Virus record (IMG/VR): IMGVR_UViG_3300009788_000165
Coordinates: 1 to 42,936 of that record
Reading direction: 5' to 3' (one strand)
Source: a virus
Lineage: Duplodnaviria > Caudoviricetes
DNA length: 42,936 nt
The translations under genes were made by a program, and so were the position numbers. Within the stretch, counting starts at the first letter, position 1. Each line of letters begins with the position of its first letter. This document shows positions 12,601-30,142 of the stretch, one piece after another. The notes below the pieces were generated by a model, which had not been told where the DNA came from, ran no database searches, and saw nothing but the letters and a program-made list of their open reading frames with translations.

Positions 12601-15600
12601 CATATCAACTTGTATACCCCAATACTTATAATATGTATCTTGAGTAATCATCGAATTCTCTTTATTAAAAGCAAACTCTCCAGTTTCAGTATTATAAACT
12701 TCTTGAATCAAATAGTCATCATTTAACTTAGTACCTACTTTATTTCCACTAGCAAATACAACTATACCTGTATTTTGATTCTCCATTTGATTTCTTAATT
12801 TTTCTAAATTAGGAAATTGTCTAGTTAATGATGGTAATATAGGAGCAAGACTTAATTTATATAATGCTGGTACAAATCCCTCTTCTGCAAGAGGTCCAAA
12901 ATGTTGAGGTTTTAAAGGTGTAAAAGCTACTTGACTAACTCTTCTTTTGTCAATTGTAAATTTATTATTTCTATCAAAAGGATCAACATAAGTTTTCTTA
13001 CCTATTTCGTACTGATAAGCTTCTTCTAAAGAACCTTTTCCAAAACTCCAATCACCAGCTCTAAGTAACATTCTTCTATATTCATCTAAATGCACAATAC
13101 CTACAGCATCAGACTCTTCTGATCTATTATATGGTTCTGCTGCTTTCTTTCCTAAAACTTTATTATACTCTTCTAAGTATTTAGATACAGATATTATATC
13201 TTTGAATACAGCAGTTGTAATAATTGGTTGACCATATTTATATTGTTGTTTTAATCTTGATATAGGATCAGTAAAAGTATCTATCCATTGATTTAAATAT
13301 TCACTTACAATAGATATTTTCTTAGTACCTACAGTAGCAGAATGTCTCTTAAATTCATCCTCTACACTTTTAAAGAATCTAGGATTACCAACAAAAACCT
13401 TCATTTGCTCTATATTAGCAATTAGGTTATTAACTGTAAAACTAGATGCTACATTAGTAAATGATTCACCACTTATAACATTTCCCTCTAAATTAATACC
13501 ATTATTTTTATAACCATCATCTACAAGTTCTACTATAGCGTTGGTTAACATTAATTCTTTATTAACTTCAATTTGACTATCTAAATAGTTTATTATAGCT
13601 CCTCTAATAGCCATTCTATTAGTTTCATCTTCAAATAATTCATTAATATCTTGTCCAGGAATAATTAGATCATTATATAAACCTTCATCAATAGCTTTAA
13701 TCATATGTAATACAATTCCTTTATTTTCATTTTTGGACAAATAATTCCACTTTTGACCATTTAGGAAATTGTTTTCATCTAACTCAGCTTTTAAGTAATT
13801 AACAAAACTATCTATATGTTCATTAAGATTAATCTTATTAGAACTAAAGAAAGTTCCAAATTCTATAAATCTTTCTAATGAATTATCAGCAGGTCTTAAT
13901 AATGCATATCTACCTTTCATAGCATTATTAATATATATTCTTAATCTATCAGCAGGTTTTAAATCTTTAAATTCTCTTTTATTAGCATCAAATCCTTCTT
14001 GTTTAGAACCTAAATGAGTAATAAATTCAATTTTATTTTTACCACCTTTAAATAGTCCATTTAATACTAAACTTTCATTTACATATTGTAAATGTGGTAA
14101 TTTTTCAAATAATTCTTCTCTGGATTGAATATTACCATTATTTATTTCATTAATAATTAATGAGATGTAACTATTTAAAGTCTGACCATATATAAGTTTA
14201 CCATCTAAATTATATAAACTATTTTCAACAGCATCTAAAGTAGTCTGTCTTTCAATATCAGCTAATACTTGTAAATCTTCAAATGCATTACCCTCTTCTT
14301 TATTATATATTAATACACCACTTCCTGCATTAATAGATTTTAACATGCCTTGTGCTCTAGTTAAAACCCTAACATCTTTGTTATCCTCAATTCTTTGAGT
14401 ATTAGAAAATTCTATTCCTAACAGTTTAAGAAATTCTATAGCATTAAAGATAGATTCAATATCCCCAATTTTAGCAAATTTAGATAATTTATATTTTATT
14501 TCTCCATTAACACTTTCATAATATCTACTATTTCTGGCTATTTTTTTAGCATTATTGTTCCATTGATTTATTTTACGTTTATTAAATGAATTCTGATTAG
14601 CATTGATAATAGTTGTTTCATTACCCTCTACAGTGTCCATAAAAAATATATTTTCATTCTTAGCCATTGTTTGTTGGAATTGAGTTCTAAGAATTACTTC
14701 ATTAGAATTCATTTCACTACCTGCTTTATCTCCACCTAATCTTCTTAATAATTCAGTTAAAGCTGGCATATCTGTAGACATTTCATTAATAGCTACATAC
14801 ATATCAGACCATTCTGTTAGACCTGATAATTTATTAATTAATACATTAAATACTTGACCAAAATCAGCAGTAGTTTCTAAACCTAATGAATTTAATTCAT
14901 TAAAAGGTAAACTAGCCAATAATAATTTAATATTTTTATTTGCATTTATTTTACTTGAATATTTAAGACTTTCAAATGCCCAAGTTTGTCCAGAATCTCT
15001 TGTTCTACTATTCTCTGATATATCAGCATTCCATTCTGTGTAATCTAATTCTAAATCATATTTTTTTAAACTTTCTGCATGCAACACAACTAATTTATCC
15101 CAATTTTCTTGAGATAGTACTTTACCTATTTCTTTAGCTTGAGCAAATACTTTACTTTTTTCAGAAGATGATAATTTAGGACTTTTATAATTAGCATACA
15201 TAGCTTTATAAGTAGTCAATAATGAAGTATAAGCAGCTACATAAGCTCTTTGCACCATTGGACCATTTCTTTGCTTATCAAACAAAGATGCTACATTATC
15301 ATCTTGTGAAAATATTGATCTAAAGAACACAGCATGAACAGAATCTAAAATCTCTTTAGTATGTAAAGATGATAATCCTGATAGAATACTACTATAATTA
15401 GTTATTCCAGAACCAGCACTTATATAAGGAGCATTAGCATATGATCCAGATTTAATATTATCAAATACTTGTTGTATAGTTACAGGATATTTATTAAATA
15501 CAAATGTTTTAATAAAGTCCAATATAGTTTGAAATAATGATTTCTGTTTAGGAGCTTTAAAATAAGATATATCTTTACCTAACATAAAATCCATAAAATC

Positions 15601-18600
15601 TTCAGCTAATACCTCTTCAATCTGATCATCAGTTAATTTTGATTTGGGATTATAACTTTTCCATTCTTTAACCAAACTTTTAAATTCTTTATTAGTTAAA
15701 AATAAATCTCTTACAGCATGAAAAGTTTCATGATACTCTGTACCTGTCTCACCAGCTTCAAATAACTTAATTAAATTATTTCTGTATGATCCCCAATTAT
15801 TACCATCTATTAAATTTTGTAATACGCCTACTTTAACTCTACCACCAAATGTTCGATGTATCCAAGCTAACGCTCTATTAATATCAATTTGAGTTTTAAC
15901 ATCTGAAGTTGCTTCTTTAAACTTAGTAGAATCTGAATTAGAAGATGATGAAGGTGGAGTTACAGATGTATCTCCAAATATATTAGCATCTGTAGTTGGC
16001 ATATCACCAAAACTATCAGGAGAAGCTAATTCTTGTTCATTACTTTCTTCTGCTATATCAGCCTCTACTTGTTCAGCAAATAAAGCTTCTTGTTCAGGTG
16101 TTAATCCAGAATCCTTTTCAACTTTGTCAACTTTTTTATCTATATCATTTAATATACCATCTTGTTCATCAGGAGTTAAATTTTCATCACTACTTATACC
16201 ATCTAAAGATTCTTCTACTCCTAGAATATCATCCATGCTCAAACTAGCTACCACCTTACCTTTAGGTTTAGTAGTCTTAGCAACAGGTTTTTTTACTTTA
16301 GCATTCTTTTTGATAGGTTTAGGTGGTTTTGGTTTTTCATCATCTATAATACTATCCATATCTACAACAGCATATACTGATCTAAATTGTGGTTCTGTAT
16401 CTATTTTTTCAGGAGTAGTTTCTTCTCTTGGTGTTATTTTACTTGTCAACATTTTATTTGATAATAACCAATTTCTATATCCACCTGTACCTTCATTAGT
16501 TGTATTAGGAGATGCATAGTATTTACCATCAGCATCTTTAGTTATATTATTAACTGTAACTATACCTCTATTATCATTAACTGTAATAGCTCTTACATTT
16601 ATATATTGTCCTTCTAAGAATTTACGTAAAGTTTCCTCAAATAAAGGATTCTCTATATATTGTCCTGTTTCTTTATCTAAAACAAATAAGTCTACTTGTC
16701 TAGGAGTACCTTTATTAGGACCATCTTCAAAATTACCTAATCTTAAAGTTCCACCTGGAATAGTTGTATTCATAAAATAGAATGAAGAAGGACTTCCAAA
16801 ATTTTTATTTAGTCTATTATTAACATCTTTAAGAGCATTAAATCTTGATATCTTACCTTTCTTTACTTTATCAGCAGCATCAGCTCTTAAATTATCCCCT
16901 GCCCAAAATACATATTGACTCATTACTCTAAATATAGATAAATCTTTTCCGTCAGTATCTTTAATAGGTACTATCTTTTCTCCTACTTTGGCACGTAAAT
17001 TACCAGCACTAGTAGAATCTATTTTGACTTTACCATTCTTATCTTTAGTTTGTTTGCTTTCACCGATGAATTTTTTCCATAATTGAGTTATAAGATTAAC
17101 TTCGTTTTCTTCTAAAACTCTCGTACCCAATGGAATAGTATTACCAGTATTTTTATCATTTGTATAAATAAATCCAGGTTTACTATTAGTTATTTCTCCA
17201 CCACTAAAAGCTACAGTATTAGCAGTAGAAACTTTAAACTCTAAATCATTCATATCTATACCTAAATCCTGAATATTAGTTGTTTGGGTTTCACCATTAA
17301 TATCTTTAAATGTTCTAGGAATACCTTTACCTTTACTAAGTACTTTAATACTGACTTCTTCATTAGCATCTAGTTTAGTAATTATAGCAGCTCTAATATT
17401 TCTATAATAAACTTCTAATTCTTGTATATATTTTTTATACTGTTCTTCAGTTATATTTTTAGGTTTGTAAAATAAATAAGATGCTTCTGAAGTTAACAAT
17501 GTAGTAAATACAAATTTACTAGGATCAGTAGTTACATTACCAAATTCATCAACTTTTTGACCTTGTTTGTTGGTAATTGTAGCATATATAATAGGTTTAT
17601 CTACAGTTTCTTTTTTAGTAGCATCAAATTGTTTTTCTTCACCGTATGATAACTCAGCTCTAAAATTGTCTTGATTTATATTAGTTCTTTCAGTAAATCT
17701 AAAATATCTTCTTTGACTAGGATCATCTGATAATGTATCATCATCTTTAACATGTCTACCAGCTAACGCATTAAACCCTATTGTATAAGGGTTTCTTTTA
17801 GATGGTTGAAATCCTTCTTTAATACCCGCTTCATTTAAATTACTTACACTTTCATATTTACCACCAAGCATTTCATTATGATAAGATTGTGAACCTACAG
17901 TTTCAGGAGCTTTTCCTATATTTGCAAGACGAACCTTAGATTCATATAAAGCTAATTCTTCTTCTAATGTATATAATTGTTGTAAAGCTATATTAGTCTT
18001 TTTTTCATATTCTTTTACTTGACTCTGTAATGAATTAATCTTACCTGCTGTAATTAACAACTCTTTATTGTTCTCATTAGGATCGGTAGTATATTTGTCA
18101 ATTCTAGCAATAGCTTTACCTATTTCATTACCAAATCTTTTATCTTCTTCTTTATTTGTTTTAACCCTGTCAGCTATTTCTTTTTTATAAGTATTAGCTA
18201 TCTCTTGTTTACCTATAACATGGTAAGCAGAGTCTAATCCCAATAATTTTAATAAAGCATTTACTATTCTTTTTAGCCCACTAATACTATCTTGAAAATA
18301 ACTAATTAAACTATTATTAGTTTTAATTTCTTCTTCTGTTGTAGCAATATCTTCTTTAATAGTTGTAGCATCTTCTTCTTCTTGAAGTTTATCTAATCTA
18401 ATATATAAATAATCACGTTTATTATTTAATTCATTTAACTCAATATTAAGTTCTTCTAAATAAGCATTTTCTTTTTTTATTTCCTCAGACAATTTCTGAG
18501 ATTGATTAATTAAATTATTGATAGTCTTTTGTGTACGTCTTCTATCAGGTTTATTAAGTAATTCCTTTAAATTGCTTAATTCTTGTTTTAATGTTTTTAT

Positions 18601-21396
18601 ATTACTTAAAGAACTTACATGATCATTTAATTCATTAATTTGTTGTTCAGTTTTTAGAATTAACTCTTCAAGTGTATCTTCTCTAAGTTGTTTATTACGT
18701 TGTTGTTCAATAGTGCTTTCATAAGTAAATTTAAATACATACTCATTATTTAATTGTTCTTTACTTTTTAACTCAGTATATTTAAAAGCTCTTTTACCAT
18801 TTTTTAATAAGGTATCTTCTTCTACTCTATATGTCCCATCTACTGCTTGATATATTTTAACCTGTTTACCATCAGAATTTCTTACATATGCTTTAGCTAT
18901 ATCCTTTTTATTGTTGAATACGAATTCTTCATTTAATTTAGATTCTGTAAGTTCCGTAGTTGTATTACCTATAGTAACTTTAAATAAGTTTTCTCCATCA
19001 TCTGAAGTTTTATTTAATTTAACTACTGATACACCTATCCCATCAGAACGTCTAATATAATTTTTAGTACCTATACCATTACTTTTAATCGGATTAGATA
19101 CTTCATATAAATTAAGCCATTCTTCATTACTAGGAACTGTATAGTCTGTTTCACTAGTATATAATCTTTTCTCACCATCAACTACTTTTACTACTCCTGC
19201 TCTTACTCCCGTAGCTTTGTCTATAACAACAGAACCATTTTCAAACTGAGATATAATAGCTTTATCTTGTAAAGTAGCATCTTTATTACGAGCTTTAGTT
19301 GTTTTACTTTCTAATCCTTGTGGATCTTTAATTGCACTTTCATACTTATCTGCAAATTCTTTTCTTCGCTCTGATAATTTTACATAATCTTCTACTAATT
19401 TATTTAAATCTAATCCTTTAGCTTGATAATTAGGACTTTCTAATTTTATTATTTCATCTAATACAATTTTATTTTCAGAAGTTTGATCTGTTAGGTATGT
19501 ATTTAATGCAGCTTGAACTCCACCAGAAAGTTGTTCATTCAAACTATCCATTCTTTTTCCAGAATTTTCTATATTATATGCATAATCAAATAATATTTCT
19601 CTACTATCATTACTAAGAGTTGGAAATCTTAACTCTAAATTAGTATATAATTGTTCCATTTTAGTAGCTTCTGATTTAAGAAGTGCTACATATTCACCTA
19701 CAGTCTTACTTTCAACTGAAGCATCTATTCCAAATCTTTTATTAAATTCTTCTTGTGGTAAATTAGCTAAGTCATCAAATTCATCCATAAGAGCATCCAT
19801 CTTACCCATTTGAATTCTAGATAAAACATAACTCTTAAATAAGTCATTCTCTAAATTTTTATATTCATATAGATCATCTTTAGCAACAGCTTGTTCCATC
19901 TGACCTTGTATAGTTGCTGATCTAACTGCATTTTCTACTTCAGGTTTAATACGTAAAAAAGATTCTTGTGTTATATCATTAGCTCGGTCTACTAATTTTC
20001 TAGTTATATTATCTCTATTCTTAATTTCTGCAAGTTTTTGACGAGTTTGACCAGTCACCACACCAGATACTAAACCTGTTATAGCACCTAACAACATAGA
20101 TTCTAAACCTTCTTTAGTTCCAAAAGTTTGTTGAAATCCATATAAAGTAGATTCCATTGCATCACCAACTACTCCTTTACCAGCAGCATCAAACTTTTTA
20201 GAATAAAAATCTGTACTACCTTTTTGAGCAACAAATTGAGATCCTTCTTCAGAAGCCTCTGTAATTACTCCACCACCAAAAGCACCTATTTTAGCTGTTG
20301 CTCTACCAACTCTTGTAGTAGTTCCTGCAACATACTTACCACCCTGTCTAGTTATATCATTTAAGACAGCTTTACGTGCTGTATTATTACCTGAAAGTAT
20401 TTTATTAAACTGTATAGCATTAGATACACTTAAAATAGCCATATTAGCTACAAAATCTACATTAGCTGCTGCGGATGATAAATCATCTATTTCAGTTAAT
20501 TTAGCTTCATATTCTTGTAAATTAATATCTCCATTTTGTAATGCAGAATTTAATTCTTCTTCATATTGTCTTTTAGCTTCTTGTTTAGTTCCAAGAGCTT
20601 CTATGCTAGCCTCACTACCAGCAGCAGTAATAGCTGCTCCTGTACTACTAATTGCATTAACAGTTTTAATTCCTTTACCTACTTGATTTAAAGCTTGATT
20701 AAAAGCTTTTGCTTCAGTCATTCCCTGAGTTGTAAATTGTTTTGCTAGTTTAGTAACAGCAGCTAATTCATCTGCATAATTAGCACTCATAGCCAATTTA
20801 CCCAGTACACCTATACCTTTAGCTACTACAGCTCCAGAACCAATTGCTCCAAGAGTAAAACCTGCATTTTTTAATAATTTATCAGATAAGAAATTCATTG
20901 TAAACCAGTTCTTAGGACTAAAAGCTCCAGCATTTTGTTCCTCGTTAGTATAATAATTAGGAAAGTATTCTTCCATCCACTTATTAAAATTGTCATAAGC
21001 ATTGGATATTTCATTATCATATACTTTGGAAAACTCTTCATTTGCTGCTGCTTCTAACATACCATAAGGTAATGATGTAAATGTAGTAAGAAATGTAGTT
21101 CCAGCAAGACCCACACCTTTAAGTAGACCATTAGCAAACTGATCTGCTGAACTTTGATTTTGTGCTCTTTGTTCATTTATATCACTAAAAACTGGATCAA
21201 CACCAGTTTTAAAATATTTTTGATAATGTTCTAATTTATATTGAGAATATTCTGGTAAAGATGTTCCAGTATACTCATTTTGTAATGGCACATTTAATTG
21301 ACTAATATCTTCTTCTTGTGCAACACTGTCCTGTAAAACATCAGCGTCTACAACTAAAGGGATATTTAAATCCCTTATATCCTTAATTTCTCCCAT
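9631..21396 (-). CDS. crAss-like virion RNA polymerase polyprotein with zincin metallopeptidase domain
   Basis: KTGSDFDID at 11785-11799 matches the DFDID signature of phi14:2 gp66-type RNAPs, with GFRIPTQ upstream. EYHETFH...EEVLAEDF zincin at 15718-15732. Gly/Ala-rich hydrophobic N-terminus. Confidence 0.92.
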   Translation of the reverse strand: MGEIKDIRDLNIPLVVDADVLQDSVAQEEDISQLNVPLQNEYTGTSLPEYSQYKLEHYQKYFKTGVDPVFSDINEQRAQNQSSADQFANGLLKGVGLAGTTFLTTFTSLPYGMLEAAANEEFSKVYDNEISNAYDNFNKWMEEYFPNYYTNEEQNAGAFSPKNWFTMNFLSDKLLKNAGFTLGAIGSGAVVAKGIGVLGKLAMSANYADELAAVTKLAKQFTTQGMTEAKAFNQALNQVGKGIKTVNAISSTGAAITAAGSEASIEALGTKQEAKRQYEEELNSALQNGDINLQEYEAKLTEIDDLSSAAANVDFVANMAILSVSNAIQFNKILSGNNTARKAVLNDITRQGGKYVAGTTTRVGRATAKIGAFGGGVITEASEEGSQFVAQKGSTDFYSKKFDAAGKGVVGDAMESTLYGFQQTFGTKEGLESMLLGAITGLVSGVVTGQTRQKLAEIKNRDNITRKLVDRANDITQESFLRIKPEVENAVRSATIQGQMEQAVAKDDLYEYKNLENDLFKSYVLSRIQMGKMDALMDEFDDLANLPQEEFNKRFGIDASVESKTVGEYVALLKSEATKMEQLYTNLELRFPTLSNDSREILFDYAYNIENSGKRMDSLNEQLSGGVQAALNTYLTDQTSENKIVLDEIIKLESPNYQAKGLDLNKLVEDYVKLSERRKEFADKYESAIKDPQGLESKTTKARNKDATLQDKAIISQFENGSVVIDKATGVRAGVVKVVDGEKRLYTSETDYTVPSNEEWLNLYEVSNPIKSNGIGTKNYIRRSDGIGVSVVKLNKTSDDGENLFKVTIGNTTTELTESKLNEEFVFNNKKDIAKAYVRNSDGKQVKIYQAVDGTYRVEEDTLLKNGKRAFKYTELKSKEQLNNEYVFKFTYESTIEQQRNKQLREDTLEELILKTEQQINELNDHVSSLSNIKTLKQELSNLKELLNKPDRRRTQKTINNLINQSQKLSEEIKKENAYLEELNIELNELNNKRDYLYIRLDKLQEEEDATTIKEDIATTEEEIKTNNSLISYFQDSISGLKRIVNALLKLLGLDSAYHVIGKQEIANTYKKEIADRVKTNKEEDKRFGNEIGKAIARIDKYTTDPNENNKELLITAGKINSLQSQVKEYEKKTNIALQQLYTLEEELALYESKVRLANIGKAPETVGSQSYHNEMLGGKYESVSNLNEAGIKEGFQPSKRNPYTIGFNALAGRHVKDDDTLSDDPSQRRYFRFTERTNINQDNFRAELSYGEEKQFDATKKETVDKPIIYATITNKQGQKVDEFGNVTTDPSKFVFTTLLTSEASYLFYKPKNITEEQYKKYIQELEVYYRNIRAAIITKLDANEEVSIKVLSKGKGIPRTFKDINGETQTTNIQDLGIDMNDLEFKVSTANTVAFSGGEITNSKPGFIYTNDKNTGNTIPLGTRVLEENEVNLITQLWKKFIGESKQTKDKNGKVKIDSTSAGNLRAKVGEKIVPIKDTDGKDLSIFRVMSQYVFWAGDNLRADAADKVKKGKISRFNALKDVNNRLNKNFGSPSSFYFMNTTIPGGTLRLGNFEDGPNKGTPRQVDLFVLDKETGQYIENPLFEETLRKFLEGQYINVRAITVNDNRGIVTVNNITKDADGKYYASPNTTNEGTGGYRNWLLSNKMLTSKITPREETTPEKIDTEPQFRSVYAVVDMDSIIDDEKPKPPKPIKKNAKVKKPVAKTTKPKGKVVASLSMDDILGVEESLDGISSDENLTPDEQDGILNDIDKKVDKVEKDSGLTPEQEALFAEQVEADIAEESNEQELASPDSFGDMPTTDANIFGDTSVTPPSSSSNSDSTKFKEATSDVKTQIDINRALAWIHRTFGGRVKVGVLQNLIDGNNWGSYRNNLIKLFEAGETGTEYHETFHAVRDLFLTNKEFKSLVKEWKSYNPKSKLTDDQIEEVLAEDFMDFMLGKDISYFKAPKQKSLFQTILDFIKTFVFNKYPVTIQQVFDNIKSGSYANAPYISAGSGITNYSSILSGLSSLHTKEILDSVHAVFFRSIFSQDDNVASLFDKQRNGPMVQRAYVAAYTSLLTTYKAMYANYKSPKLSSSEKSKVFAQAKEIGKVLSQENWDKLVVLHAESLKKYDLELDYTEWNADISENSRTRDSGQTWAFESLKYSSKINANKNIKLLLASLPFNELNSLGLETTADFGQVFNVLINKLSGLTEWSDMYVAINEMSTDMPALTELLRRLGGDKAGSEMNSNEVILRTQFQQTMAKNENIFFMDTVEGNETTIINANQNSFNKRKINQWNNNAKKIARNSRYYESVNGEIKYKLSKFAKIGDIESIFNAIEFLKLLGIEFSNTQRIEDNKDVRVLTRAQGMLKSINAGSGVLIYNKEEGNAFEDLQVLADIERQTTLDAVENSLYNLDGKLIYGQTLNSYISLIINEINNGNIQSREELFEKLPHLQYVNESLVLNGLFKGGKNKIEFITHLGSKQEGFDANKREFKDLKPADRLRIYINNAMKGRYALLRPADNSLERFIEFGTFFSSNKINLNEHIDSFVNYLKAELDENNFLNGQKWNYLSKNENKGIVLHMIKAIDEGLYNDLIIPGQDINELFEDETNRMAIRGAIINYLDSQIEVNKELMLTNAIVELVDDGYKNNGINLEGNVISGESFTNVASSFTVNNLIANIEQMKVFVGNPRFFKSVEDEFKRHSATVGTKKISIVSEYLNQWIDTFTDPISRLKQQYKYGQPIITTAVFKDIISVSKYLEEYNKVLGKKAAEPYNRSEESDAVGIVHLDEYRRMLLRAGDWSFGKGSLEEAYQYEIGKKTYVDPFDRNNKFTIDKRRVSQVAFTPLKPQHFGPLAEEGFVPALYKLSLAPILPSLTRQFPNLEKLRNQMENQNTGIVVFASGNKVGTKLNDDYLIQEVYNTETGEFAFNKENSMITQDTYYKYWGIQVDMGNKIKNEVIWGTQMAKQIMNNLYSFGKPIAMRFNINGKLTEKSSEETQKLIDKYLELNARRINSGYRELIVKLGLQLDSNGNYQIEDNGRLVEALTDAARSRDMDDNVMNSIKYIGEVGIDTLPNRRKFEQILMAMADKTAISQKTYGGSKVQVSSVFLERNNLREVTSINGVNHIVSNDLNFYNPTFNKKGEIIAVESMEVYLPAIYKGIITTKNISDKRLLDIIGFRIPTQALNSIESIKIAGFLPVEMGDAVVLPSEIVTKTGSDFDIDTLKIFLINFFYDKKGNPNYIDPKMSYTDYLKLVEGTPLKEGFYERAQIENELKEVMKIIITSPDNIQQLLIPNNVDTLKSESIYNQYLQYKANGLYTGEFKDFTEWIENEELNTPYNNIVETSYLMDVAKRFLGGNAAIGITALFSTFHILAQRHNLQINKEYVKHTKDKDIVTSTRINMDHNGEGEYINLGGVQDVNDKNSIVQLFNMWINASVDAATDPFMFLLNATPQTLNTVLYLTMAGVPIKTIGLFMNQPIIHTYMANQNKYESLMADSVGLSVGGKIVKYQNQILALTKSEYTGKTDITIDDTIQLTDSILEAAILDKGKSGNMQQQILYDFIRYQEVAKEISNAMQGTTYDTKGGGKSLSELAYRLGLTQQVIDNKIILGYEELINSGFIQPYHSAVAGFGKAFEAYVPHLRNPQVVDMYKEFMQKYLQRDVSFKIDDVVNTMDKFKEDFLVYLMMNYSKDETGTILKDEINRLFKGKSSMANRVEYFKKKYPHNSLLNNLFTIFSSSTAKDAINNLKMYITRLDNIESNQLTKDWKDMIEGSSEESKFGRDLIKFIILQSGLQNSPLNFVNLAPVDEYVKMMNGVLQVLSKTNNTFSDYPAQFAVQNQHDKTVVPRSKKPGFDFYIKKTFKGPITERDLSLTDNNKTVKVINPPIRNFKESSTLNAYGIMELPNLSTSTSQILEEDVQEVTEQEDKECRMKSSPLTKN

Positions 21397-21397
21397 A

Positions 21398-23242
21398 TTA
21401 TATATTTAAACTTTTTATAACATCAAACATTAATGCTTTTGGCATAGCTCCTTGTTTATCCTTTGTAGTTTTTATAGTTTGGCTTTGAGGATCTATATAT
21501 AAATAATAATCACCAGATTTTAAATAATAAAATGGATCTGTATTTTCTAAATCTTCTTCAATATAAAGTTCATTATCTCTAATAGCTTTGTTAATATCAG
21601 AAGGAACATCTGGCATAGTTGTAATAATGCTACCAGTTTCATCAAAAGATAAAGCTGATGCCTTTAATGATTCTACTAATTCAGGTTGTTTAATGATATC
21701 TCTAACATAATTCATTTGTTTTTCAAAACCCGTATTCCAAGTAGCATCACTAATTGTTCCATCAGGATTTACTACTTTCCAAATTAAACCTGCTATTTCA
21801 TTACCACCTACGCTTAATACTTTTAATTTTTCAGCATTTTTTACACCATAAGCCTCATTTACTTCTTTAATACTCTTACCTGCATTATCTCCATTTAAAA
21901 AAGTAAATTGATCAGATTGGTTAAATCCTTCTTTTCCACTAGTTGCCCAATTATTATAAGCAATTTTACTTTTAGCATTTGTAAAATCAGGTTCATAAAA
22001 ATTTATATTATAATCTGCATCAAAACCTTTTGACGCAATATAAGCTTCAGATTTATTTGCTAACATATTTGAATAATCATTTCTTACTTCAAGTCTATCT
22101 GCATATGCTAAATTATAAGCAAATCCTTTTCCTTTTAATTTACCTAATTCTTCGTCAGTTACACTAGCTTTCTCATATAAATTTCTTAATTCTTTATCTT
22201 CTCTAAGCATTGCTCTTTCAATTGCCATTGATTGAGCTTCTGCATGATTTATATTACCTTTTGTATATTCTAATAAAGGATCAAAATCTGGCTCTATAAA
22301 TTTATGACTCCAATTAAAATTAAATTTTGTATTAATGCTATTTTTTGTAAAATCTTCATGTGTAAAATTTTTATTATTTTCAAATAAACCAGCACTACTT
22401 ATTACACCTGGAGCAACTGTATTAGCTGCTTTTTTAGCTTCTAAAATAGCTTTATCTTTTGCTGATAAATAATCTTTATTTTGTAAATAACCTCTTTTAT
22501 GAACACCAACCATACCCTGTCCTTCAGATATTAAATATTGTCTAGCAAATTCTATTGGATCATGATTATTTACTTCAGCTAATCTGGCTAACTCTGGAGC
22601 AGTTTCTAGAAACTTAGCCATTTTCTCATCTGTTAAATTGCTCATAAAATCTTCTTGGGTAATTTCACTTACTTGTTCATAAAATTGACCGTCTTCAGTT
22701 AATTTTAAAGGTCTTTCTGTAGATTTTATTTGAGATAACCATTGTGCACCTTTAGTTTGTAATTTAGATTTATCATATATTTCATAATCAAATGCTGAAG
22801 GATCTTTCACATTCCCTTGTTCATCTGTTAAAGATGTATCTGGTTTAGATATCTCTATTACATTTCCAGCACCTATTCTATTAACTTGTTGTTGATACTC
22901 TTGTACTTTACCTTGTTGATACTTATTTAAATTGTATATAGGATTATTTCTTTCCTTAACAATAAGTTTAGATAATTCTGGAGCAGCAGCTTCGTAATCA
23001 TTATTATATTTTTTAAGAATGTCATCTTTTTCAGCATTAAATCTACCAAGTGTATTCTGTTTAGCTTGTTCATCTAAAAAGAATATTTCACCTTGTTTAG
23101 CTTGTTCAGCTTGTAATCCTGCAAAACTTTGTTCAAATCTATTACTTCTTTCTTGAAGTATTCTTTGAGTTAAGTCTTGAGCACCTGGATCAAATTGTGA
23201 TACATATCTTGCTGCTTGTACGCTTTGTCTTCTTGGAGCCAT
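21398..23242 (-). CDS. Putative internal virion (cargo/ejection) protein
   Basis: Synteny between the cargo genes and the vRNAP; helical N-terminus; no catalytic motif recognised. Confidence 0.65.
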   Translation of the reverse strand: MAPRRQSVQAARYVSQFDPGAQDLTQRILQERSNRFEQSFAGLQAEQAKQGEIFFLDEQAKQNTLGRFNAEKDDILKKYNNDYEAAAPELSKLIVKERNNPIYNLNKYQQGKVQEYQQQVNRIGAGNVIEISKPDTSLTDEQGNVKDPSAFDYEIYDKSKLQTKGAQWLSQIKSTERPLKLTEDGQFYEQVSEITQEDFMSNLTDEKMAKFLETAPELARLAEVNNHDPIEFARQYLISEGQGMVGVHKRGYLQNKDYLSAKDKAILEAKKAANTVAPGVISSAGLFENNKNFTHEDFTKNSINTKFNFNWSHKFIEPDFDPLLEYTKGNINHAEAQSMAIERAMLREDKELRNLYEKASVTDEELGKLKGKGFAYNLAYADRLEVRNDYSNMLANKSEAYIASKGFDADYNINFYEPDFTNAKSKIAYNNWATSGKEGFNQSDQFTFLNGDNAGKSIKEVNEAYGVKNAEKLKVLSVGGNEIAGLIWKVVNPDGTISDATWNTGFEKQMNYVRDIIKQPELVESLKASALSFDETGSIITTMPDVPSDINKAIRDNELYIEEDLENTDPFYYLKSGDYYLYIDPQSQTIKTTKDKQGAMPKALMFDVIKSLNI

Positions 23243-24783
23243 TATTGATATCTTTGGGTTTTAGTAGGATCTTGAGCTATAGTTGATTTTCTACCAAATG
23301 CTGCTGTATCCCACCATTTTTGATTAGGATCATTATATAGACTTGTAGTTCCTGGTAATTGTTGATATAATTGATTATAAGTCTTAGCTTTTTGAACATC
23401 TCCAAAATAAGTACCTATATCACCTATAATATTTTGTATAGCTTGATCTTTTTGAGCCTGAGCATAATTTTGTTCAGCTCTATTAGCTTCAGATTCTCTT
23501 ATACCTATATTTGCATTAATTATTGCAGCCCTATTAGCAATTTGAGCATTTGTAGTTTGCTCTTGAGTTAAAGATCTGGATATTTGTTCTCCTTCTAATC
23601 TACTAGCAGCAACTTCACCAGAAATTACTCTGTTTGTAAAATCAGCAGCATTAGAACCTACTCCTTTTGCAGTTCTTCTTGAAACATTTCTTAATTGGTT
23701 AGCTCTACTTCTAGCAGCTACTCTTTCAGAAGATAAATCAATGGTTTCAGGTCTTATTCTATCATAACTAACATCCTTTATATTTTTACCAGCTTGACTA
23801 CTTAGTAATACATTACCAGCAACACTAGCAGCTAAAGGTATAAGAGATGTTCCTCCTAATGTAGGATTGTAATATTCAGATTGTGGTTGTCCTTCTAAAT
23901 TAGCTTGTGCTGCATTAACAGGTCTTAAATTTAAATTTGATTCTGTTATAGGTAGTGTAATGTCAACAGGATCTAATCTATTAATTTTTGGATCACTTCC
24001 AGCAACTCTATTATAACCATAATTTACTTCTGGTACATTTGCAAATTGAAAATTACTAATTGAACTAAAATCTTGACCTAAATTTTCCTGTAAATAATCA
24101 GGTAAATATTGATTACTATCATTATGTATATGAATCCCACCACCTTTATGATATTTAGGTAATTTTCCACCATTTATAAATTGTCTAGGATTCTTATTAA
24201 ATTCCTGTTCACTTATTGCTTGAGCTTTAAGTTGATTTTCTCGTACTAATTCGTCAATACCTTGTATAAATGCTGGAGAAGCTGTACTATGTACACCTGC
24301 TGTCTGATTATAAGGTGCGTTATAAAATTCTTGACCTATACCTGCACCTACACCTCTACCTGTAATAGGGAAGTTAGGAATAGAATAAGGAGTACCCTCA
24401 TACTGTTTTCCACCAGGACGTAATTCATAACTACCTTGTTGTATTTTATTTAAATATCTTGGATCAGCTTCTCTCCAATAATTTTTTACTTGTTCTAATT
24501 CTTCGGGGTCTACTGTACCTCCATTTTGATATTCTACTAATCCTTGATCTACAGCTTCCTGATGAGTAGCTCCAGACATTACAGTACCATCAGGCATTAC
24601 ATGAGTAGCTCCAGCAGATTGTTCAGCTTTAACAGCTTCTTGTTTATCTTTAAGTTCATTTAATTCTAATTCCATACCTTTTCTAGCCAAAACATCATTT
24701 TTGGTAAAATCATCTCCAAGTCTTCTTTTATACTTGTTTGTAATTCTATCGGCTTCTTTTGCGAATGTATTTTTCTTTGCCAT
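23242..24783 (-). CDS. Putative cargo/ejection protein (possibly the C-terminal part of a split cargo gene)
   Basis: Starts with KxTFAxxA; contains YQNGG, FINGG and YHKGG motifs, one hydrophobic segment and a Gln/Ala/Asn-rich coiled-coil C-terminus. Confidence 0.7.
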   Translation of the reverse strand: MAKKNTFAKEADRITNKYKRRLGDDFTKNDVLARKGMELELNELKDKQEAVKAEQSAGATHVMPDGTVMSGATHQEAVDQGLVEYQNGGTVDPEELEQVKNYWREADPRYLNKIQQGSYELRPGGKQYEGTPYSIPNFPITGRGVGAGIGQEFYNAPYNQTAGVHSTASPAFIQGIDELVRENQLKAQAISEQEFNKNPRQFINGGKLPKYHKGGGIHIHNDSNQYLPDYLQENLGQDFSSISNFQFANVPEVNYGYNRVAGSDPKINRLDPVDITLPITESNLNLRPVNAAQANLEGQPQSEYYNPTLGGTSLIPLAASVAGNVLLSSQAGKNIKDVSYDRIRPETIDLSSERVAARSRANQLRNVSRRTAKGVGSNAADFTNRVISGEVAASRLEGEQISRSLTQEQTTNAQIANRAAIINANIGIRESEANRAEQNYAQAQKDQAIQNIIGDIGTYFGDVQKAKTYNQLYQQLPGTTSLYNDPNQKWWDTAAFGRKSTIAQDPTKTQRYQ

Positions 24784-24786
24784 ATC

Positions 24787-26469
24787 TTATTTATATTCTA
24801 TATTGTCACTAAATATATATCCATTAAAATTAACTTCTCCATTTTCAGTCAAGGCTATACCTTGTTTACCAGTTATAGCAGTAGGATTACCTTCTTGATC
24901 AACTTCAATACCTCCTTGATTTCCCTCATGACTCTGACCATTATATTTTCTAATTATAGGAGTACCATTGTTTTCAGAAATATTTCCACCATTTTGAAAT
25001 TCTCTTGAAAAATTTTCATATACATTTGAATTTTTATATTGTTCAGAAAACCTTAAAGCTTCTGCTTCATCTTTGAATTCTAAATAATTTTTATTTTGTC
25101 TAGCACGTTCTCTACCAGCACTTCCCTCAAATAATTGTAAACTATCTCCTTGTTGTTGTATCTCAGGATATACTATATTATCACTTTGTCTTAAAAAATG
25201 GCTACCTGAACTACCATATTTTCTATGATCTTCTGGAAAAGTATAGGTTAATGAGGTATCTGGATTATACAATCTATTTACAAAAGGTACATTTCTATTA
25301 GCATTAAATGTAGAATCAATTTGTGCCCTAGTAAAATTTTGTAGTTCTCCACCACCATTTTGTAATTGAACTCTTGCTCCTGCATTAAGAATAAATTCAT
25401 TTAGAGTAGGTTCTCCAATACTACTAGTTCCAGATTGAAATCTATTTGTAGTATTAGCAATAGAATCTAATAATTCTGGAGAATATCTAGCATTAGCATC
25501 TTCTCTTGAAAAATTAAAATCACTTACTAAGGTATCTATTGTATTTGCTTTAGTTCTAGGTCTATATACATTTGGAGTATAACTAGCTGTATTAAATGTA
25601 TCTACTGGATTAGTAGTATAAATAATTTTACCTGTAGCATCTCTACCTATAGGAGTTTTACCTTTATTAGGATCGTTATCTATTGGTCCACCATTTTGTT
25701 TTCTAGGTAAATATCCACCATTTCTTACTTGTATATTTGGATTAGCTCCAAGATTAGCTCCTCTTTGTTGGGATAACTGTAATGATTCGGCTGTTCTTTG
25801 TCTATCTTCAAATTCTTGCTGTGCTTTTTTAGCTGCTTCTTGTTCATCTCTATAATCTGCTAAAGAATTATAAAAAGAACCACCAACTAAATCCCAAGCA
25901 GCATTCCAATATTCACCTTGTTCTAAATCTTTTTGAGCTTGAGCAAATGGATCTATACCAGAAATTGCTGCATAAACAGCATCAGCTTGTAATTCTCTAG
26001 GTACATTTGATTCTTCTTCTCCATATCCTACATTAACACCAAATTCATTATAATTATTTACTAATTGTCCAGCAAGTTCTCCTACAAGACCAGCTCCAGC
26101 AATAGCAGTTCCTACTCCTGGTGCTACTGTACTTGCTATACTAGCAGCAGTAGCAGATCCAGCAGATGTACCTTGATAACCAAATTGTTGATTATAAGGA
26201 TTATCTTCAAATGTAGATAATAATCCTGTAGCAGCACCTAAACCTGCTGTTGCTGCTCCATAATTAAAAGAAGTATCTCCTATATTAGAAATATTATCAC
26301 TACCTAATCCTTGAAGATTACTCTGATCAACACCTCCTGGTATTCCTGATGATTGATATCTTTGATCAGTTGCAAATAAATTTTGATAATATGGATTTAG
26401 TCCACCACCATCTTGTAATTTTCTAAGACGTTGATATCTAGGACGTTTACTTATTTTTTTCTTAGCCAT
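24787..26469 (-). CDS. Putative cargo/ejection protein with GxSHExxxGG domain
   Basis: Basic N-terminus, Gly/Ala hydrophobic helices, five xx(N/D)GG motifs and C-terminal GQSHEGNQGG...ENGE...IFSD. Immediately follows the muzzle gene. Confidence 0.7.
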   Translation of the reverse strand: MAKKKISKRPRYQRLRKLQDGGGLNPYYQNLFATDQRYQSSGIPGGVDQSNLQGLGSDNISNIGDTSFNYGAATAGLGAATGLLSTFEDNPYNQQFGYQGTSAGSATAASIASTVAPGVGTAIAGAGLVGELAGQLVNNYNEFGVNVGYGEEESNVPRELQADAVYAAISGIDPFAQAQKDLEQGEYWNAAWDLVGGSFYNSLADYRDEQEAAKKAQQEFEDRQRTAESLQLSQQRGANLGANPNIQVRNGGYLPRKQNGGPIDNDPNKGKTPIGRDATGKIIYTTNPVDTFNTASYTPNVYRPRTKANTIDTLVSDFNFSREDANARYSPELLDSIANTTNRFQSGTSSIGEPTLNEFILNAGARVQLQNGGGELQNFTRAQIDSTFNANRNVPFVNRLYNPDTSLTYTFPEDHRKYGSSGSHFLRQSDNIVYPEIQQQGDSLQLFEGSAGRERARQNKNYLEFKDEAEALRFSEQYKNSNVYENFSREFQNGGNISENNGTPIIRKYNGQSHEGNQGGIEVDQEGNPTAITGKQGIALTENGEVNFNGYIFSDNIEYK

Positions 26470-26542: not shown

Positions 26543-29500
26543 CTAACGCATCATCTTAGAAGGTTTATAATTTGTTGTTAGATTATATAATATTAATTCT
26601 TTATTTGATACATTAGTAAAGGATAACTCTACTTTTATCCAACTATTAACAAATTTTGGTTTATTAAGTGTATTAGCTCTTAATGTATTTATTCTCCAAG
26701 TTCTAAATCTTCTTATAATATTACTACCTGGAGTAAGAGTTATAGTTCCACTATCTTGATATTCATTGTATATCCTAATAGTATTAAAAGTTTCATATAA
26801 ATCTACTCCTACACTACTAGTAACATTAGTTAGTATTTCTAATACATCAAATACACTAATTATATTTTGTTGTGGTTTAGGATTAATTACCAATGTAAGT
26901 TTAGATGGACTTGCTGATGCACCATGATATCTACATAAATCTCCTTTATCATGTTCATGAAATTCTGTAGTAACATTTGTATTACTAGAAAACAATGTAT
27001 TTTGCATTTCATATATTTTATTAATAAATGGCATAGTAAAGAAATTACTAAAACATTTACTATATTCATCTAATACCAATACATAAGGAGTTGATCCATT
27101 TTTAATAACAAATAAAATTTCATTATTATTTTGATCAAAGACTCCTTGTATACCTTGAAAATTAGTTATAATTTGATCAAACCAACTATCCATACCATAT
27201 ACAAAAGAAACTGGTTCAATTCCACCAGAATATTTACTAATGGTTTTAAATCTATTATCATAAAAATACATATTACTTTTAGATACTACTAAAGCATCAT
27301 GAGAACTAATACCATTATGTTCTGATATATAATCAAACCTATCAAGAATACCAGTAGAACCTACATTTAAAGCTTCATCACCTCCACTTGCTACTAATTC
27401 TTTTTCTCCTACAGGAAACGTACCAAAAGCTCCTTCCTGCCAAAAAGTTAATCTATTTTTAAATGTTTTTAATCTATGAATATCCCCATATCTACTATCT
27501 ATATCTATATAATTACTTGATAAAAATTTTAACCAGCTATCAGCACTTTCTCCATTTATCTTAATATTTGATCTTCTTACTCTTGTTGTAAAAATTTCAG
27601 AACTCTGATAATCAAATGGCTTTGGTATATATGTGTATAAATCATTTAACCTCGAATAAGAATTATTATAAGTATATAATTTACTTAAAGTAATTCCTTG
27701 ATCTAAATCAACAAAACCATCTTCATGCATATTTCTAATAACAGTATCTATATCATAATTTGTAAGTTTATGATAACAATCATCATCTCTTAATGATAAA
27801 TTAACTTGAGTCTCTACTGGAAAATATATTACATTTGTAAAATCTGGATGTGTATCTTCATCTTTCATACTTCTTAAATAATCATACATTTGTATAAATG
27901 TATCACCATAATGACAAGTAATATTACCAACTGAATCTGTTAAATCTGAACAAGAAATATAACTATTTGCTGCTCTTGCTTCATCACTATTTCCACCATA
28001 TTGTACAGATAAATTTCTAATTAAATGTCCATATAAAATAGCTATATTATCAGTTCCTCCATGTGCTGCAATTGTTGGAGCAGATACTTTTATAAGTAGT
28101 GAAGTTCCTTGCATTCCTCTATTAATATTTCCACCACCACCATGATTAATTACATAATGTGTTACCCCTGTACCATCTAAATTATATACTGAATCTCCTA
28201 CTTTATTGGGAGTTGTTTTAACTTTATCAATTATACTTGCTGAAGGACAAGTTATATAATCTGAATAATAATAAGTTTGTTGTATAAATGCAAAAGTAGG
28301 CGAACTTATTGGAGTATATGATGTTGATACTCCTCCAGGATTAGTATAAGTTTTACGAGCATTTGATCCATGAGTTAATGAAGAAGTATATTCTATACTT
28401 TCTGCTAATTGATAATCATCAGAACCAAAATTAATTTCTGGAGATACAAAGTTAGGAAATTGTCTCCAATAGTTAGGAATACCTGGTCCACCAGGAATAT
28501 AATTATTTATATAATCATCTACTGTTGGAATAACATGTTGAAAATCTTTTACACTTCCTTCATCATTTGGAAAATCAAATATTCCAGAAGCTAATATACT
28601 TTTATTTTCTACACCCCTTTCCACATAAACAATTTTCCATTTTAATGGAACTCCTCCAACTGAAGGAAGATTTTTTACAACTGCTACAGGATAAATATAA
28701 GAAGCATTAATATGAGTAGTACTAGTTACATTAGCCATATCATATCCATCTTGTGCTCTTGGAATTCTTAAATCACAACTCCATTTAGTAAAAGCCTTTC
28801 TACCTTTCTCATCAAAAAATTGAATTCCATATCTATATACTTCACCTCTTTGCCAAGTAGTTTTAATACCAAAAGCAGCATCATCTATACTGGAAGTATC
28901 AAAAGAAAATTGTTTTAAAGAATCAAAATTAGTAACATCATAAGTACCTATTCGTTTATTTTCTGTAGTAAATGACCAATCTATATTTGTTCCAGATGCT
29001 CCATAAGTACTTCCATTAGATTGAAACTTATAAGTATCAAAATCTTCATTAACATCTTGTCCATATGTAGCTGGTGCACTACTATAACTCTTAGCTGTAG
29101 CATCCCAAGCATCTATACCTGTTTGTATATCAGTTGTAGTTTCATCTATATTTCCTAAAAATAATATGTTATTCTTTACTTCTATTGTTTCAGGAATAAG
29201 ATCAGGATATATAAATTGTATTTCATCTAAACCATAAGTACCAAATGATTGTCCATAATCAATAATATCAATACTGCTAGTACTATATGCTTGTTCTGTT
29301 ATAATTCTTACTGTAGGAGAAATATATAAATCTTCATATTGTATTGCTAATACTCTAATTCTAGTAAAGGATGTATCTAATCCAGCAATATTAAGTTTAA
29401 CTCCTCTATTAGTAATAGTATCCTTTTCAGTACCTCTTATAGTTACTAAAGATTCTCCAACTCCTATTGCAGTACTTACTGATATTAATTCTCCATTAGA

Positions 29501-30142
29501 AGTAAAAACTGTTTCTGCACCATTTGTTTTAAACAATTGATATACATAAGTATATTTACCAGCATACATAGTACCACCAGTATATCCTGTAAAAGAAATT
29601 TCACTAGTATCAAAAGTTGGAATTTGCTCAAAATCAGATGCATCTGTGTATACACCAGGAGTTTCTATATTCATATAACGTAATGAATGTAGACCATTAA
29701 TCCAATATATTTTTATTATATTTTCTGTTTCAATTCTAGTAACTCCTTTAATAGGATAATTAACATCAAATCCTAATTTATCACTAGTACCAGTGTCATC
29801 ATATAAATTAGTACCTATACTTTGTGCAACATCTGTTCCATCATGAATAAATTTATAAATATAACTAGCACTTGTAGAAGTATTGATTGTAAAAATAATT
29901 GTTTCTGTGGAAGTTATATCTAAAATTCCATTAATTACATGATTAGTAGGTATAGTAATTTTATAATTAGTTCCTAAAATATGATTAGATAAAGCTGTAG
30001 TAGCCTCACCTTCTTTGGAACGCAATCTTAAATTTTCTGCATGTAAATAATTAACATTAGTATAATTATTAAGGGATAAATCTTTATTCATCCCTTTTTT
30101 ATAAGTATTAATATGTTTGAAAGAGTTTCTACTTGCTACCAT
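26543..30142 (-). CDS. Tail muzzle / tail stabilisation protein (crAss-like)
   Basis: N-terminal YKKGMNKDLS...YLHAENLR, RGEVYRYGIQF, GESADSWLKF and C-terminal RRFRTWRI; size and position after the ring protein fit. Confidence 0.85.
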   Translation of the reverse strand: MVASRNSFKHINTYKKGMNKDLSLNNYTNVNYLHAENLRLRSKEGEATTALSNHILGTNYKITIPTNHVINGILDITSTETIIFTINTSTSASYIYKFIHDGTDVAQSIGTNLYDDTGTSDKLGFDVNYPIKGVTRIETENIIKIYWINGLHSLRYMNIETPGVYTDASDFEQIPTFDTSEISFTGYTGGTMYAGKYTYVYQLFKTNGAETVFTSNGELISVSTAIGVGESLVTIRGTEKDTITNRGVKLNIAGLDTSFTRIRVLAIQYEDLYISPTVRIITEQAYSTSSIDIIDYGQSFGTYGLDEIQFIYPDLIPETIEVKNNILFLGNIDETTTDIQTGIDAWDATAKSYSSAPATYGQDVNEDFDTYKFQSNGSTYGASGTNIDWSFTTENKRIGTYDVTNFDSLKQFSFDTSSIDDAAFGIKTTWQRGEVYRYGIQFFDEKGRKAFTKWSCDLRIPRAQDGYDMANVTSTTHINASYIYPVAVVKNLPSVGGVPLKWKIVYVERGVENKSILASGIFDFPNDEGSVKDFQHVIPTVDDYINNYIPGGPGIPNYWRQFPNFVSPEINFGSDDYQLAESIEYTSSLTHGSNARKTYTNPGGVSTSYTPISSPTFAFIQQTYYYSDYITCPSASIIDKVKTTPNKVGDSVYNLDGTGVTHYVINHGGGGNINRGMQGTSLLIKVSAPTIAAHGGTDNIAILYGHLIRNLSVQYGGNSDEARAANSYISCSDLTDSVGNITCHYGDTFIQMYDYLRSMKDEDTHPDFTNVIYFPVETQVNLSLRDDDCYHKLTNYDIDTVIRNMHEDGFVDLDQGITLSKLYTYNNSYSRLNDLYTYIPKPFDYQSSEIFTTRVRRSNIKINGESADSWLKFLSSNYIDIDSRYGDIHRLKTFKNRLTFWQEGAFGTFPVGEKELVASGGDEALNVGSTGILDRFDYISEHNGISSHDALVVSKSNMYFYDNRFKTISKYSGGIEPVSFVYGMDSWFDQIITNFQGIQGVFDQNNNEILFVIKNGSTPYVLVLDEYSKCFSNFFTMPFINKIYEMQNTLFSSNTNVTTEFHEHDKGDLCRYHGASASPSKLTLVINPKPQQNIISVFDVLEILTNVTSSVGVDLYETFNTIRIYNEYQDSGTITLTPGSNIIRRFRTWRINTLRANTLNKPKFVNSWIKVELSFTNVSNKELILYNLTTNYKPSKMMR

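Follow-up and report, generated by a model that had tools for sequence, protein, structure and literature searches.

Modules of a split crassvirus cargo protein C1 are exchanged at a recurrent bulky-x-x-Gly-Gly peptide that may also be a maturation site

The DNA studied is a 42,936-nucleotide (nt) window with 28% G+C, part of the genome of a Crassvirales-like phage (IMG/VR record IMGVR_UViG_3300009788_000165). Two adjacent open reading frames (ORFs) within it, A and B, are the crassvirus cargo protein C1 (gp45 of crAss001, PF25725) split in two, likely the protein that the phage injects first. A short di-glycine peptide occurs eight times in the pair, and it is at this peptide that modules of C1 are gained, lost and reordered. 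The explanation somewhat favoured here is that the peptide, bulky-x-x-Gly-Gly, is in addition a maturation site cut after its bulky residue, in the register of a cut mapped in phage T5.

The sequencing run that best holds this DNA (X1, share 0.97) carries the label subsurface metagenome and may be its source sample. The genes of the window run from ring proteins and muzzle (PF24228, PF25702, PF25731) through ORF A, ORF B and a 614-amino-acid (aa) gene to a 3,921-aa protein, which matches crAss001 gp47 and the phi14:2 virion RNA polymerase, and then a 1,830-aa protein. The ORF pair follows the muzzle gene directly and precedes C2 and the virion RNA polymerase, which is the position of a C1 gene. 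The genes that frame it, and the parts of C1 recognised in it, are:

26543..30142, minus strand: muzzle protein (PF25731, E 8.4e-135)
24787..26469, minus strand: ORF A, 560 aa, N-terminal part of C1 (gp45-like), directly after the muzzle gene, assigned on profile and Pfam evidence
23242..24783, minus strand: ORF B, 513 aa, C-terminal part of C1, assigned by comparison of fused and split forms in 15 related loci
21398..23242, minus strand: cargo protein C2 (gp46-like), 614 aa, lacking the refined motif defined below, assigned by a profile match to gp46
25726..26415, minus strand: segment A, ORF A aa 19-248, a conserved Gly/Ala-rich scaffold from a family of 13 segments of 211-281 aa
24790..24996, minus strand: first half of the C1 (portal-binding) domain, ORF A aa 492-560, with near-invariant H514, E542, E545 and S554
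24619..24783, minus strand: second (helical) half of the C1 domain, ORF B aa 1-55, recognised through homologue P0008 and fused to the first half in relatives
23245..24150, minus strand: C-terminal scaffold of C1, ORF B aa 212-513, from a family of 32 segments

That A and B are the two parts of one C1 follows several lines. The last 60 aa of ORF A match PF25725 weakly (14.7 bits, cut-off 27); the score of A alone is below the cut-off because the C1 domain is split over the two ORFs. A profile of this C-terminal region (A2) matches gp45 in PDB 7QOG chain M (E 2.3e-5), and aa 4-60 of P0008 match PF25725 positions 78-128. The domain opens at motif 5 of A and runs through the first 55 aa of B. Its H514, E542, E545 and S554 are near-invariant among 105 aligned C1 domains, where they align with gp45 H450, E472, E475 and S484, and the GG that opens the domain is kept in 95-96% of them. 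The A-like and B-like parts form a single ORF in 8 of the 15 related loci and are split at the same point in the other 7 (L019 being closely related to L021, and L007 and L013 being one contig). The next gene is C2: a profile of the 614-aa protein with 12 locus homologues matches crAss001 gp46 (E 2.6e-6). In contig 18 of run X3, from a close relative, 1,053 letters replace 65 at the ORF A / ORF B junction (window 24726-24792); they may be a mobile gene that entered at the point of the C1 split.

The crAss001 gp45 (PDB 7QOG, 7QOI, 7QOJ, 7QOL and 8CKB; PF25725; PMC10172136) resembles the window protein in its position after the muzzle, the H/E/E/S residues of its C1 domain, a Gly/Ala-rich N-terminal part, a helical C-terminal scaffold and repeated x↓AxGG motifs (arrow, predicted cut) that separate short modules. 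It differs in that the window C1 is split in two inside the C1 domain and carries other modules (B, C and D). Location of C1 inside the virion is established for crAss001 alone, and the window phage is uncultured. Segment A has a moderately hydrophobic stretch, its best 19-aa hydropathy mean being 1.53 at aa 111-129; judged on hydropathy alone, this stretch may be the membrane-inserting part, and a membrane helix is predicted in the N-terminal region of gp45 (PMC10172136). A tblastn search of 50,697 phage records with A, B and a module C homologue gave no match, nor did A, B or the muzzle match anything when viral contigs were scanned, and a metagenome scan returned only the window's own record (L026).

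The eight motifs given in the preliminary description of this DNA are all present, on the minus strand of ORFs A and B:

26416..26469, minus strand: basic leader, ORF A aa 1-18, ending at motif 1; short leaders that end at a motif recur in relatives
26401..26418, minus strand: motif 1, L↓QDGGG (arrow, predicted cut in the T5 register)
25687..25728, minus strand: doublet of motifs 2 and 3, V↓RNGGYLPRK↓QNGG
25348..25365, minus strand: motif 4, L↓QNGGG, one end of the module C deletion
24985..24999, minus strand: motif 5, F↓QNGG, which opens the C1 domain, equivalent of crAss001 N424↓A425FGG
24517..24531, minus strand: motif 6, Y↓QNGG, one breakpoint of the X3 relative being base 1 of this Tyr codon
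24136..24180, minus strand: doublet of motifs 7 and 8, F↓INGGKLPKY↓HKGGG

Their GG are at aa 21, 251, 260, 372 and 494 of ORF A and at aa 88, 205 and 214 of ORF B. Three spacings are similar, as had been reported, at 112, 122 and 117 codons, the others being 230, 9 and 9; both doublets, with their shared spacer, are exactly 9 aa apart, and this is the commonest short motif spacing in relatives (35 cases). The doublet of motifs 2 and 3 is retained at the same place in P0003, P0004, P0010, P0011, P0016, P0017 and P0019, while P0007 and P0008 retain a motif plus LPKY/LPQY at the place of motifs 7 and 8. The leader before the first motif is indeed basic, with K or R at 9 of 18 residues. The idea of a unit of about 110-120 aa holds for the spacing within the window but not as a fixed length, for segments in relatives range from 9 to more than 300 aa (their peak at 100-130 aa comes partly from selecting carriers of module C).

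For the pattern [N/D]GG, chosen post hoc, there are 7 copies in the 1,073 aa of A plus B, where shuffles give a mean of 1.44 (P = 5e-4), and one in the other ~13,000 aa of window ORFs examined. The repeated GG has proved real, but its restriction to QNGG has not: the 526 sites in 156 related proteins are broader, with Y, F, K or M three residues before GG in 69% and A, Q, E or K two before in 63%. The consensus is L-P-K-[YFKM]-[AQEK]-x-G-G-x-[LIVMF], of which the last position was part of site selection. In the 15 related loci the refined motif, tuned on overlapping data, has 64 copies among the 13,100 aa that 22 C1 ORFs encode, against 2.4 expected, and none among the 40,790 aa of non-C1 ORFs, against 2.8 expected. 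It recurs in C1 of crAss001 (about 8 copies in gp45), DAC15, IAS and phi14:2, less clearly in cr10_1, and is not seen as a pattern in the gp46-type proteins of these five phages. The window's C2, virion RNA polymerase and 1,830-aa cargo protein are likewise without it; these absences speak against its being, in this phage, a general capsid-targeting tag for all cargo.

The DNA word CAAAATGG(T/A)GG that recurs at four junctions was suspected to come from AT-biased codon use, and codon use alone suffices. From that of the genome (CAA 87%, AAT 93%, GGT/GGA 97%) the word is expected for QNGG with a frequency of 0.78 per site and 0.37 for all four. Since codon use explains the word, it is no evidence for a DNA signal, and a DNA-level signal at the seams was rejected as codon bias. 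At the first Gly codon of the motif GGT is enriched (42 of 64, P = 0.002), at the second it is not (P = 0.13); this enrichment is not read as a recombination site.

Between the motifs lie the following modules:

25363..25698, minus strand: module B, ORF A aa 258-369, 112 aa, with 7 homologues
24997..25362, minus strand: module C, ORF A aa 370-491, 122 aa, an alpha/beta domain with invariant His424 and Pro435
24556..24621, minus strand: 22-aa mini-module, ORF B aa 55-76, which in P0002 stands directly after a motif
24178..24528, minus strand: module D, ORF B aa 86-202, 117 aa, an orphan

That these are cassettes is best seen in one close relative, whose motif-to-motif deletion is the strongest single datum. 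A 2,388-base contig of run X3 (depth 12, pieces ~85-94% identical to the window) joins 24985 to 25352, with 366 nt (122 codons) removed in frame. What is removed is module C, exactly motif to motif, as would be expected if indel boundaries coincide with the motif, and at the joint 11 letters common to motifs 4 and 5, CAAAATGGTGG, fit either side. In the same contig 171 nt replace 612 nt of ORF B; one break is at the first base of the motif 6 Tyr codon, whereas codon 289, where the other falls, belongs to no motif. Runs X1 and X2, whose contigs show presence and not absence, gave no motif-to-motif joint.

The homologue search (1.84 billion representatives, 200 matches, counts being from the best 150 of the 200) agrees with this. 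The module C core, motifs removed, is in 53 other proteins among the matches listed, which are not independent lineages. A motif lies within 25 aa upstream of the core in 39 of 48 carriers, within 29 aa downstream in 40 of 51 and on both sides in 34 of 47; it is inside the core in none of the 53. Random windows of the same proteins have a motif in 10-11% and shuffles in 3.5%. With plain GG and no bulky-residue rule the counts are 42/48 upstream, 41/51 downstream and 3/53 inside (null 21%). Modules also occur in other contexts, as had been suggested for checking: in 47 of the 53 carriers neither a C1 domain nor a scaffold is detectable, three carriers being only 109-144 aa, and viral clusters of 104-107 aa in the ESM Atlas have the predicted module C fold (TM 0.60-0.69). 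Among the 7 homologues of module B a motif is upstream in 4 of 6, downstream in 7 of 7 and inside in none. The closest relatives keep scaffold, doublet and C1 domain, and the slot between holds B in P0003, P0010 and P0014 and unrelated segments in P0004, P0011, P0016 and P0017. P0002 reverses the window order, with C (69% identity over 163 aa) coming before B. Module D, missing from P0006, P0007 and P0008, has no homologue among the 156 proteins and no clear ESM Atlas match. Altogether the flanks of modules C and B, the order reversal and the X3 deletion bear out the cassette shuffling that the motif had been suggested to mediate.

Module C is modelled by AlphaFold2 from a 37-row alignment as an independently folding domain (mean predicted local distance difference test score, pLDDT, 85.5; predicted template modelling score 0.78; single-sequence prediction, pLDDT 36.8). 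The model is weakest at the terminal blocks that hold the motifs (pLDDT 54 and 42). Foldseek gave no match to it in the PDB and the best VIA-align Z among 48,161 chains was 3.2; a fold search gave two weak viral matches (E ~1.5e-3), and a new fold is not thereby established. A match of the module C profile to cr108_1 was not recovered in 41 kb of cr108_1.

In the sampled relatives the 652 segments fall into 56 families plus 216 singletons. The commonest small cassette, with 24 segments, is a basic module of 53-65 aa (IHIK...NARKW type; L001:4988-7516, L004:16610-19108, L005:16570-19284 and P0006), a tandem pair in DAC15 and perhaps DNA binding. In P0002 (aa 420-470) and L003:19007-21106 the Glu-Glu and His-Gly-Gly elements of the C1 domain stand in reversed order, by eye, a possible circular permutation.

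One might suppose that the motif is a mere read-out of recombination seams and flexible linkers, with no specific reader. The NGG copies in ORF A share 9-12 identical bases, the X3 deletion runs between two such copies, and the motif ends of module C are linker-like in the model. Yet the amino acid pattern is kept across crassvirus families despite free codon choice, and at leaders and C-termini with no module following; the DNA word needs codon bias alone, and the excess of the refined motif in C1 ORFs, with none elsewhere, is not what mere seams would give. This explanation is improbable.

The modules of A and B match no Pfam or PHROG family and no solved fold, and the two ORFs have no HExxH and no Pfam enzyme domain. 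In 50 long relatives the named extra domains are phage lysozymes (6 proteins, the tail-lysozyme family counted), SLT, amidase, YkuD, peptidoglycan-binding, histidine phosphatase (3) and domains of unknown function (DUFs). These number 19, the phosphatases and some DUFs being closely motif-bracketed. The histidine-phosphatase domains of P0078, P0083 and P0094 have motifs 23-24 aa upstream and 4-27 aa downstream, and module C is also present in these proteins. For a DUF6582-like reading of gp45 aa 261-329, Pfam gave no match. The cargo had been imagined as anti-defence proteins, for which no family was found in the window modules or among the domains of the 50 relatives; judged by these domain matches, cell-envelope targets appear better represented.

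The case for cutting begins with a different phage. The T5 tape measure protein pb2 is cut after R1127, according to the proteomics and liquid chromatography-electrospray ionisation-time-of-flight mass spectrometry (LC-ESI-TOF-MS) in the accessible part of Linares 2023 (PMC10038345). The cut is in FVPR↓AEGGMM, the sole fit to the consensus among the five GG of pb2, and its place means that GG stays on the downstream piece. The family consensus conforms to this x↓A-x-G-G-x-aliphatic pattern, with Q, R, I or H for Ala at the window sites. Among the matches listed, the 120 relatives of the released piece, pb2C, are all 91-100% identical.

For crAss001 gp45, two stretches are resolved, 425-552 at the portal wing and 214-245 within the tail (Bayfield 2023, available part of PMC10172136). 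A T5-register cut at N424↓A425FGG would leave Ala 425 as the new N-terminus, and the other end of the stretch, 552, precedes the next site, F559↓AYGG, by seven residues. The six gp45 stretches that this part of the paper names are all free of predicted cuts; the random chance of this is 0.10, which makes it weak evidence. Peak lists from matrix-assisted laser desorption/ionisation (MALDI) in the part of Shkoporov 2018 at hand (PMC6235969) were re-matched to 30 crAss001 proteins at 80 ppm. The re-match identified the capsid, auxiliary, portal, muzzle and spike proteins together with all three polymerase proteins, and the 91-kDa gp45 was not above chance in any of the 13 gel bands (z -1.3 to 0.6).

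In lambda, gpH gives gpH* of ~78 kDa and a ~14-kDa piece, with neither cut site nor enzyme known from the portion of PMC12617516 consulted. A cut at FATGG (aa 733) would give 79.6 and 12.5 kDa, compatible within gel error. Both FATGG (aa 733) and YATGG (aa 778) of gpH (L006:1043-3604) are in the removed region. The T5 and lambda proteins (pb2 to pb2* plus pb2C, gpH to gpH* plus gpHC) are, like C1, ejected virion proteins, with R↓AEGGMM, FATGG and YATGG as their look-alike sites. They differ in being siphophage tail rulers with one cut, whereas the window has short-tailed phage cargo with eight sites and swappable inserts, and beyond the motif no sequence homology to C1 is shown. The C1-domain profile matches neither pb2 nor gpH, so common descent is not shown.

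A cut on the other side of the di-glycine, by an adenain-, African swine fever virus (ASFV)- or ubiquitin-type protease, had been the initial model. Such proteases cut after GG, and the di-glycine is invariant. The adenovirus-type consensus has a hydrophobic residue two before GG, whereas here A, Q, E or K is two before and the bulky residue three before; a conserved aliphatic residue follows GG; and no adenain, ASFV pS273R, ubiquitin-type cysteine or JAB protease is among the 24 window ORFs scanned, the window being only part of the genome. Both the T5 cut and the start of the gp45 model are two residues before GG, leaving it on the downstream piece. A cut after GG is very improbable. Polyprotein processing as such is plausible, but the T5 look-alike site points to a register other than the one first proposed. 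Another precedent, the capsid-targeting sequence of T4 IPI-III, is N-terminal only, cut after Glu and removed by gp21. A short N-terminal leader, likely removed, head-loaded proteins and variable cargo are common to both; in the window 7 of 8 sites are internal, the motif is repeated and no acidic residue stands at the predicted cut, Glu not being among the eight commonest residues there.

If the chain stays whole, the motif could be an uncut docking or hinge turn, read by a loading factor, chaperone, the portal or the C1 domain, that marks points at which the chain could halt, refold or pass through during loading and ejection; this is a serious though less probable explanation. Several observations fit it: the motif at the C1-domain start is ordered in the virion (PMC10172136, part seen) and its GG highly conserved; conservation lies on both sides of GG (L-6, P-5, K-4, aromatic-3, aliphatic+3), as in a binding peptide; avidity accounts for the 9-aa doublets more readily than a use for 1-kDa products would; and in the published model gp45 is threaded as a whole chain over 420 Å. 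Docking leaves unpredicted the coincidence, at one motif position, of the T5 cut with the first ordered residue of gp45 and, a weak point, the missing gp45 band near 91 kDa. Docking and cutting are not exclusive, as a piece that starts at A425 would stay portal-bound.

Under the explanation favoured here, a T5-register cut at the seams of a split C1, the C1 domain would bind the portal wing, as in crAss001, and carry the attached modules into the prohead. The chain would then be cut after L18, V248, K257, L369 and F491 of A and Y85, F202 and Y211 of B, going by T5 and the gp45 model. The pieces, of 2-33 kDa, would be small enough for storage in head and tail and ejected ahead of the DNA, each module coming free inside the particle and beginning with [A/Q]-x-Gly-Gly as its new N-terminus. 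As the seams are encoded by near-identical AT-biased codons, they may also serve as microhomology for in-frame recombination, and an insert bracketed by two of them would be tolerated because it is cut out. Candidates for the protease would be the C1 domain itself (with its His/Glu/Glu/Ser invariants), the polymerase zincin or a host enzyme.

Several points weigh on the other side. No crassvirus cut has been mapped and no protease identified for the seams, the link to T5 is one site of five residues, and PMC11445458 and PMC10713586, in their accessible parts, add no mapped site. Bayfield 2023 (PMC10172136, in the part available) models gp45 as one continuous chain, and its main text, to the same extent, mentions neither cleavage nor the motif. 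Just ahead of the predicted cut the residues are very diverse, namely Y, F, K, M, A and L, with Asn or Ser in part of the gp45 sites and Arg for T5, which is unusual for one protease. Order in gp45 could begin at 425 because the motif packs on the C1 domain. In the MALDI re-match the motif-free control gp46 was also not convincingly found, so that absence of gp45 from the bands is weak evidence; the portal band was itself weak (12 matches vs 3.7), and two bands had no assignment. The end of gpH* was estimated by its authors at ~690-710, 20-40 residues short of 733 (PMC12617516, same portion). The doublets, if cut, would give 1-kDa peptides, lysozyme domains in relatives are mostly not closely motif-bracketed, and the X3 deletion is one contig of one run that may record either gain or loss. 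For these reasons the T5-register cut is held to be only somewhat probable, docking is given a smaller but substantial share, mere seams a slight one and a cut after Gly-Gly the least.

As to the candidate proteases, H514, E542, E545 and S554 of the C1 domain are guessed to be a catalytic or amine-binding site; a complex prediction for the domain with a motif-bearing peptide (score 0.00) spoke neither for nor against this. The zincin is in the 3,921-aa protein (window 9631-21396, minus strand), a fusion of a gp47-like N-terminus, zincin HExxH and virion RNA polymerase:

15718..15732, minus strand: HExxH (aa 1889) of the zincin domain in the virion RNA polymerase polyprotein, candidate protease

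For the zincin of phi14:2, suggested roles are processing or activation of the polymerase or digestion of peptidoglycan (10.1101/2020.03.07.982082, accessible part), and those of polyvalent proteins have been proposed as processors (Iyer et al. 2017, PMC5512222, likewise in part). C2 and the polymerase in the window, however, have no refined motif. In phi14:2 gp81, a C1 (L002:23672-25453), two modules, both with a GG motif before them, have HExxH (aa 234 and 461); these would be zincin-like cassettes in a cultured crassvirus.

Polyvalent proteins are a further likeness, being multi-module injected proteins with shuffled domains (PMC5512222, in the part consulted, where no di-glycine motif is mentioned), and an ART-PolyVal domain and the zincin are in neighbouring cargo genes of the window. 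A and B differ in being without HExxH or a named enzyme domain; several effector or zincin domains in one polypeptide are found in neither, and in part in the neighbours and phi14:2 gp81. The ART-PolyVal ADP-ribosyltransferase domain (aa 141-275, E 1.9e-9) is in the 1,830-aa cargo-region protein (window 4135-9627, minus strand), which has a weak exonuclease-like PHROG match at aa 674-782. By these matches it would be a better candidate than the C1 modules for an injected host-takeover effector. An HNH endonuclease gene is also present within the tail gene cluster (window 38169-38870, minus strand).

The literature searched, with subscription papers mostly outside it, has no description of the motif, of the cassette design of C1 or of C1 cleavage. 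C1, tape-measure maturation and polyvalent proteins were already known; new here are the deletion that runs from motif to motif in a close relative, a mobile module that folds and whose boundaries are quantified, and the T5-register match to the gp45 model. It is a tentative further thought, rather doubtful at present, that one undescribed x↓AxGG maturation system is common to siphophage tape measures and crassvirus ejection proteins, with the His/Glu/Glu domain that follows as protease or reader, and that crassviruses have a plug-in polyprotein platform which loads any two-seam module and injects it as free protein. Were that true, the lambda gpH cut would be fixed at F733↓A734, and crAss001 gp45 would be stored as pieces and not threaded through the portal.

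Crassviruses are dominant phages of Bacteroidota, and the account of their ejection mechanism depends on a single structure in which C1 is read as an uncut chain. Cut seams would alter the ejection model, define a large pool of small phage proteins that are injected, and make the old question of lambda gpH cleavage testable, since the motif predicts one bond. Even if they are not cut, the motif still serves as a reliable guide for dividing cargo proteins into modules.

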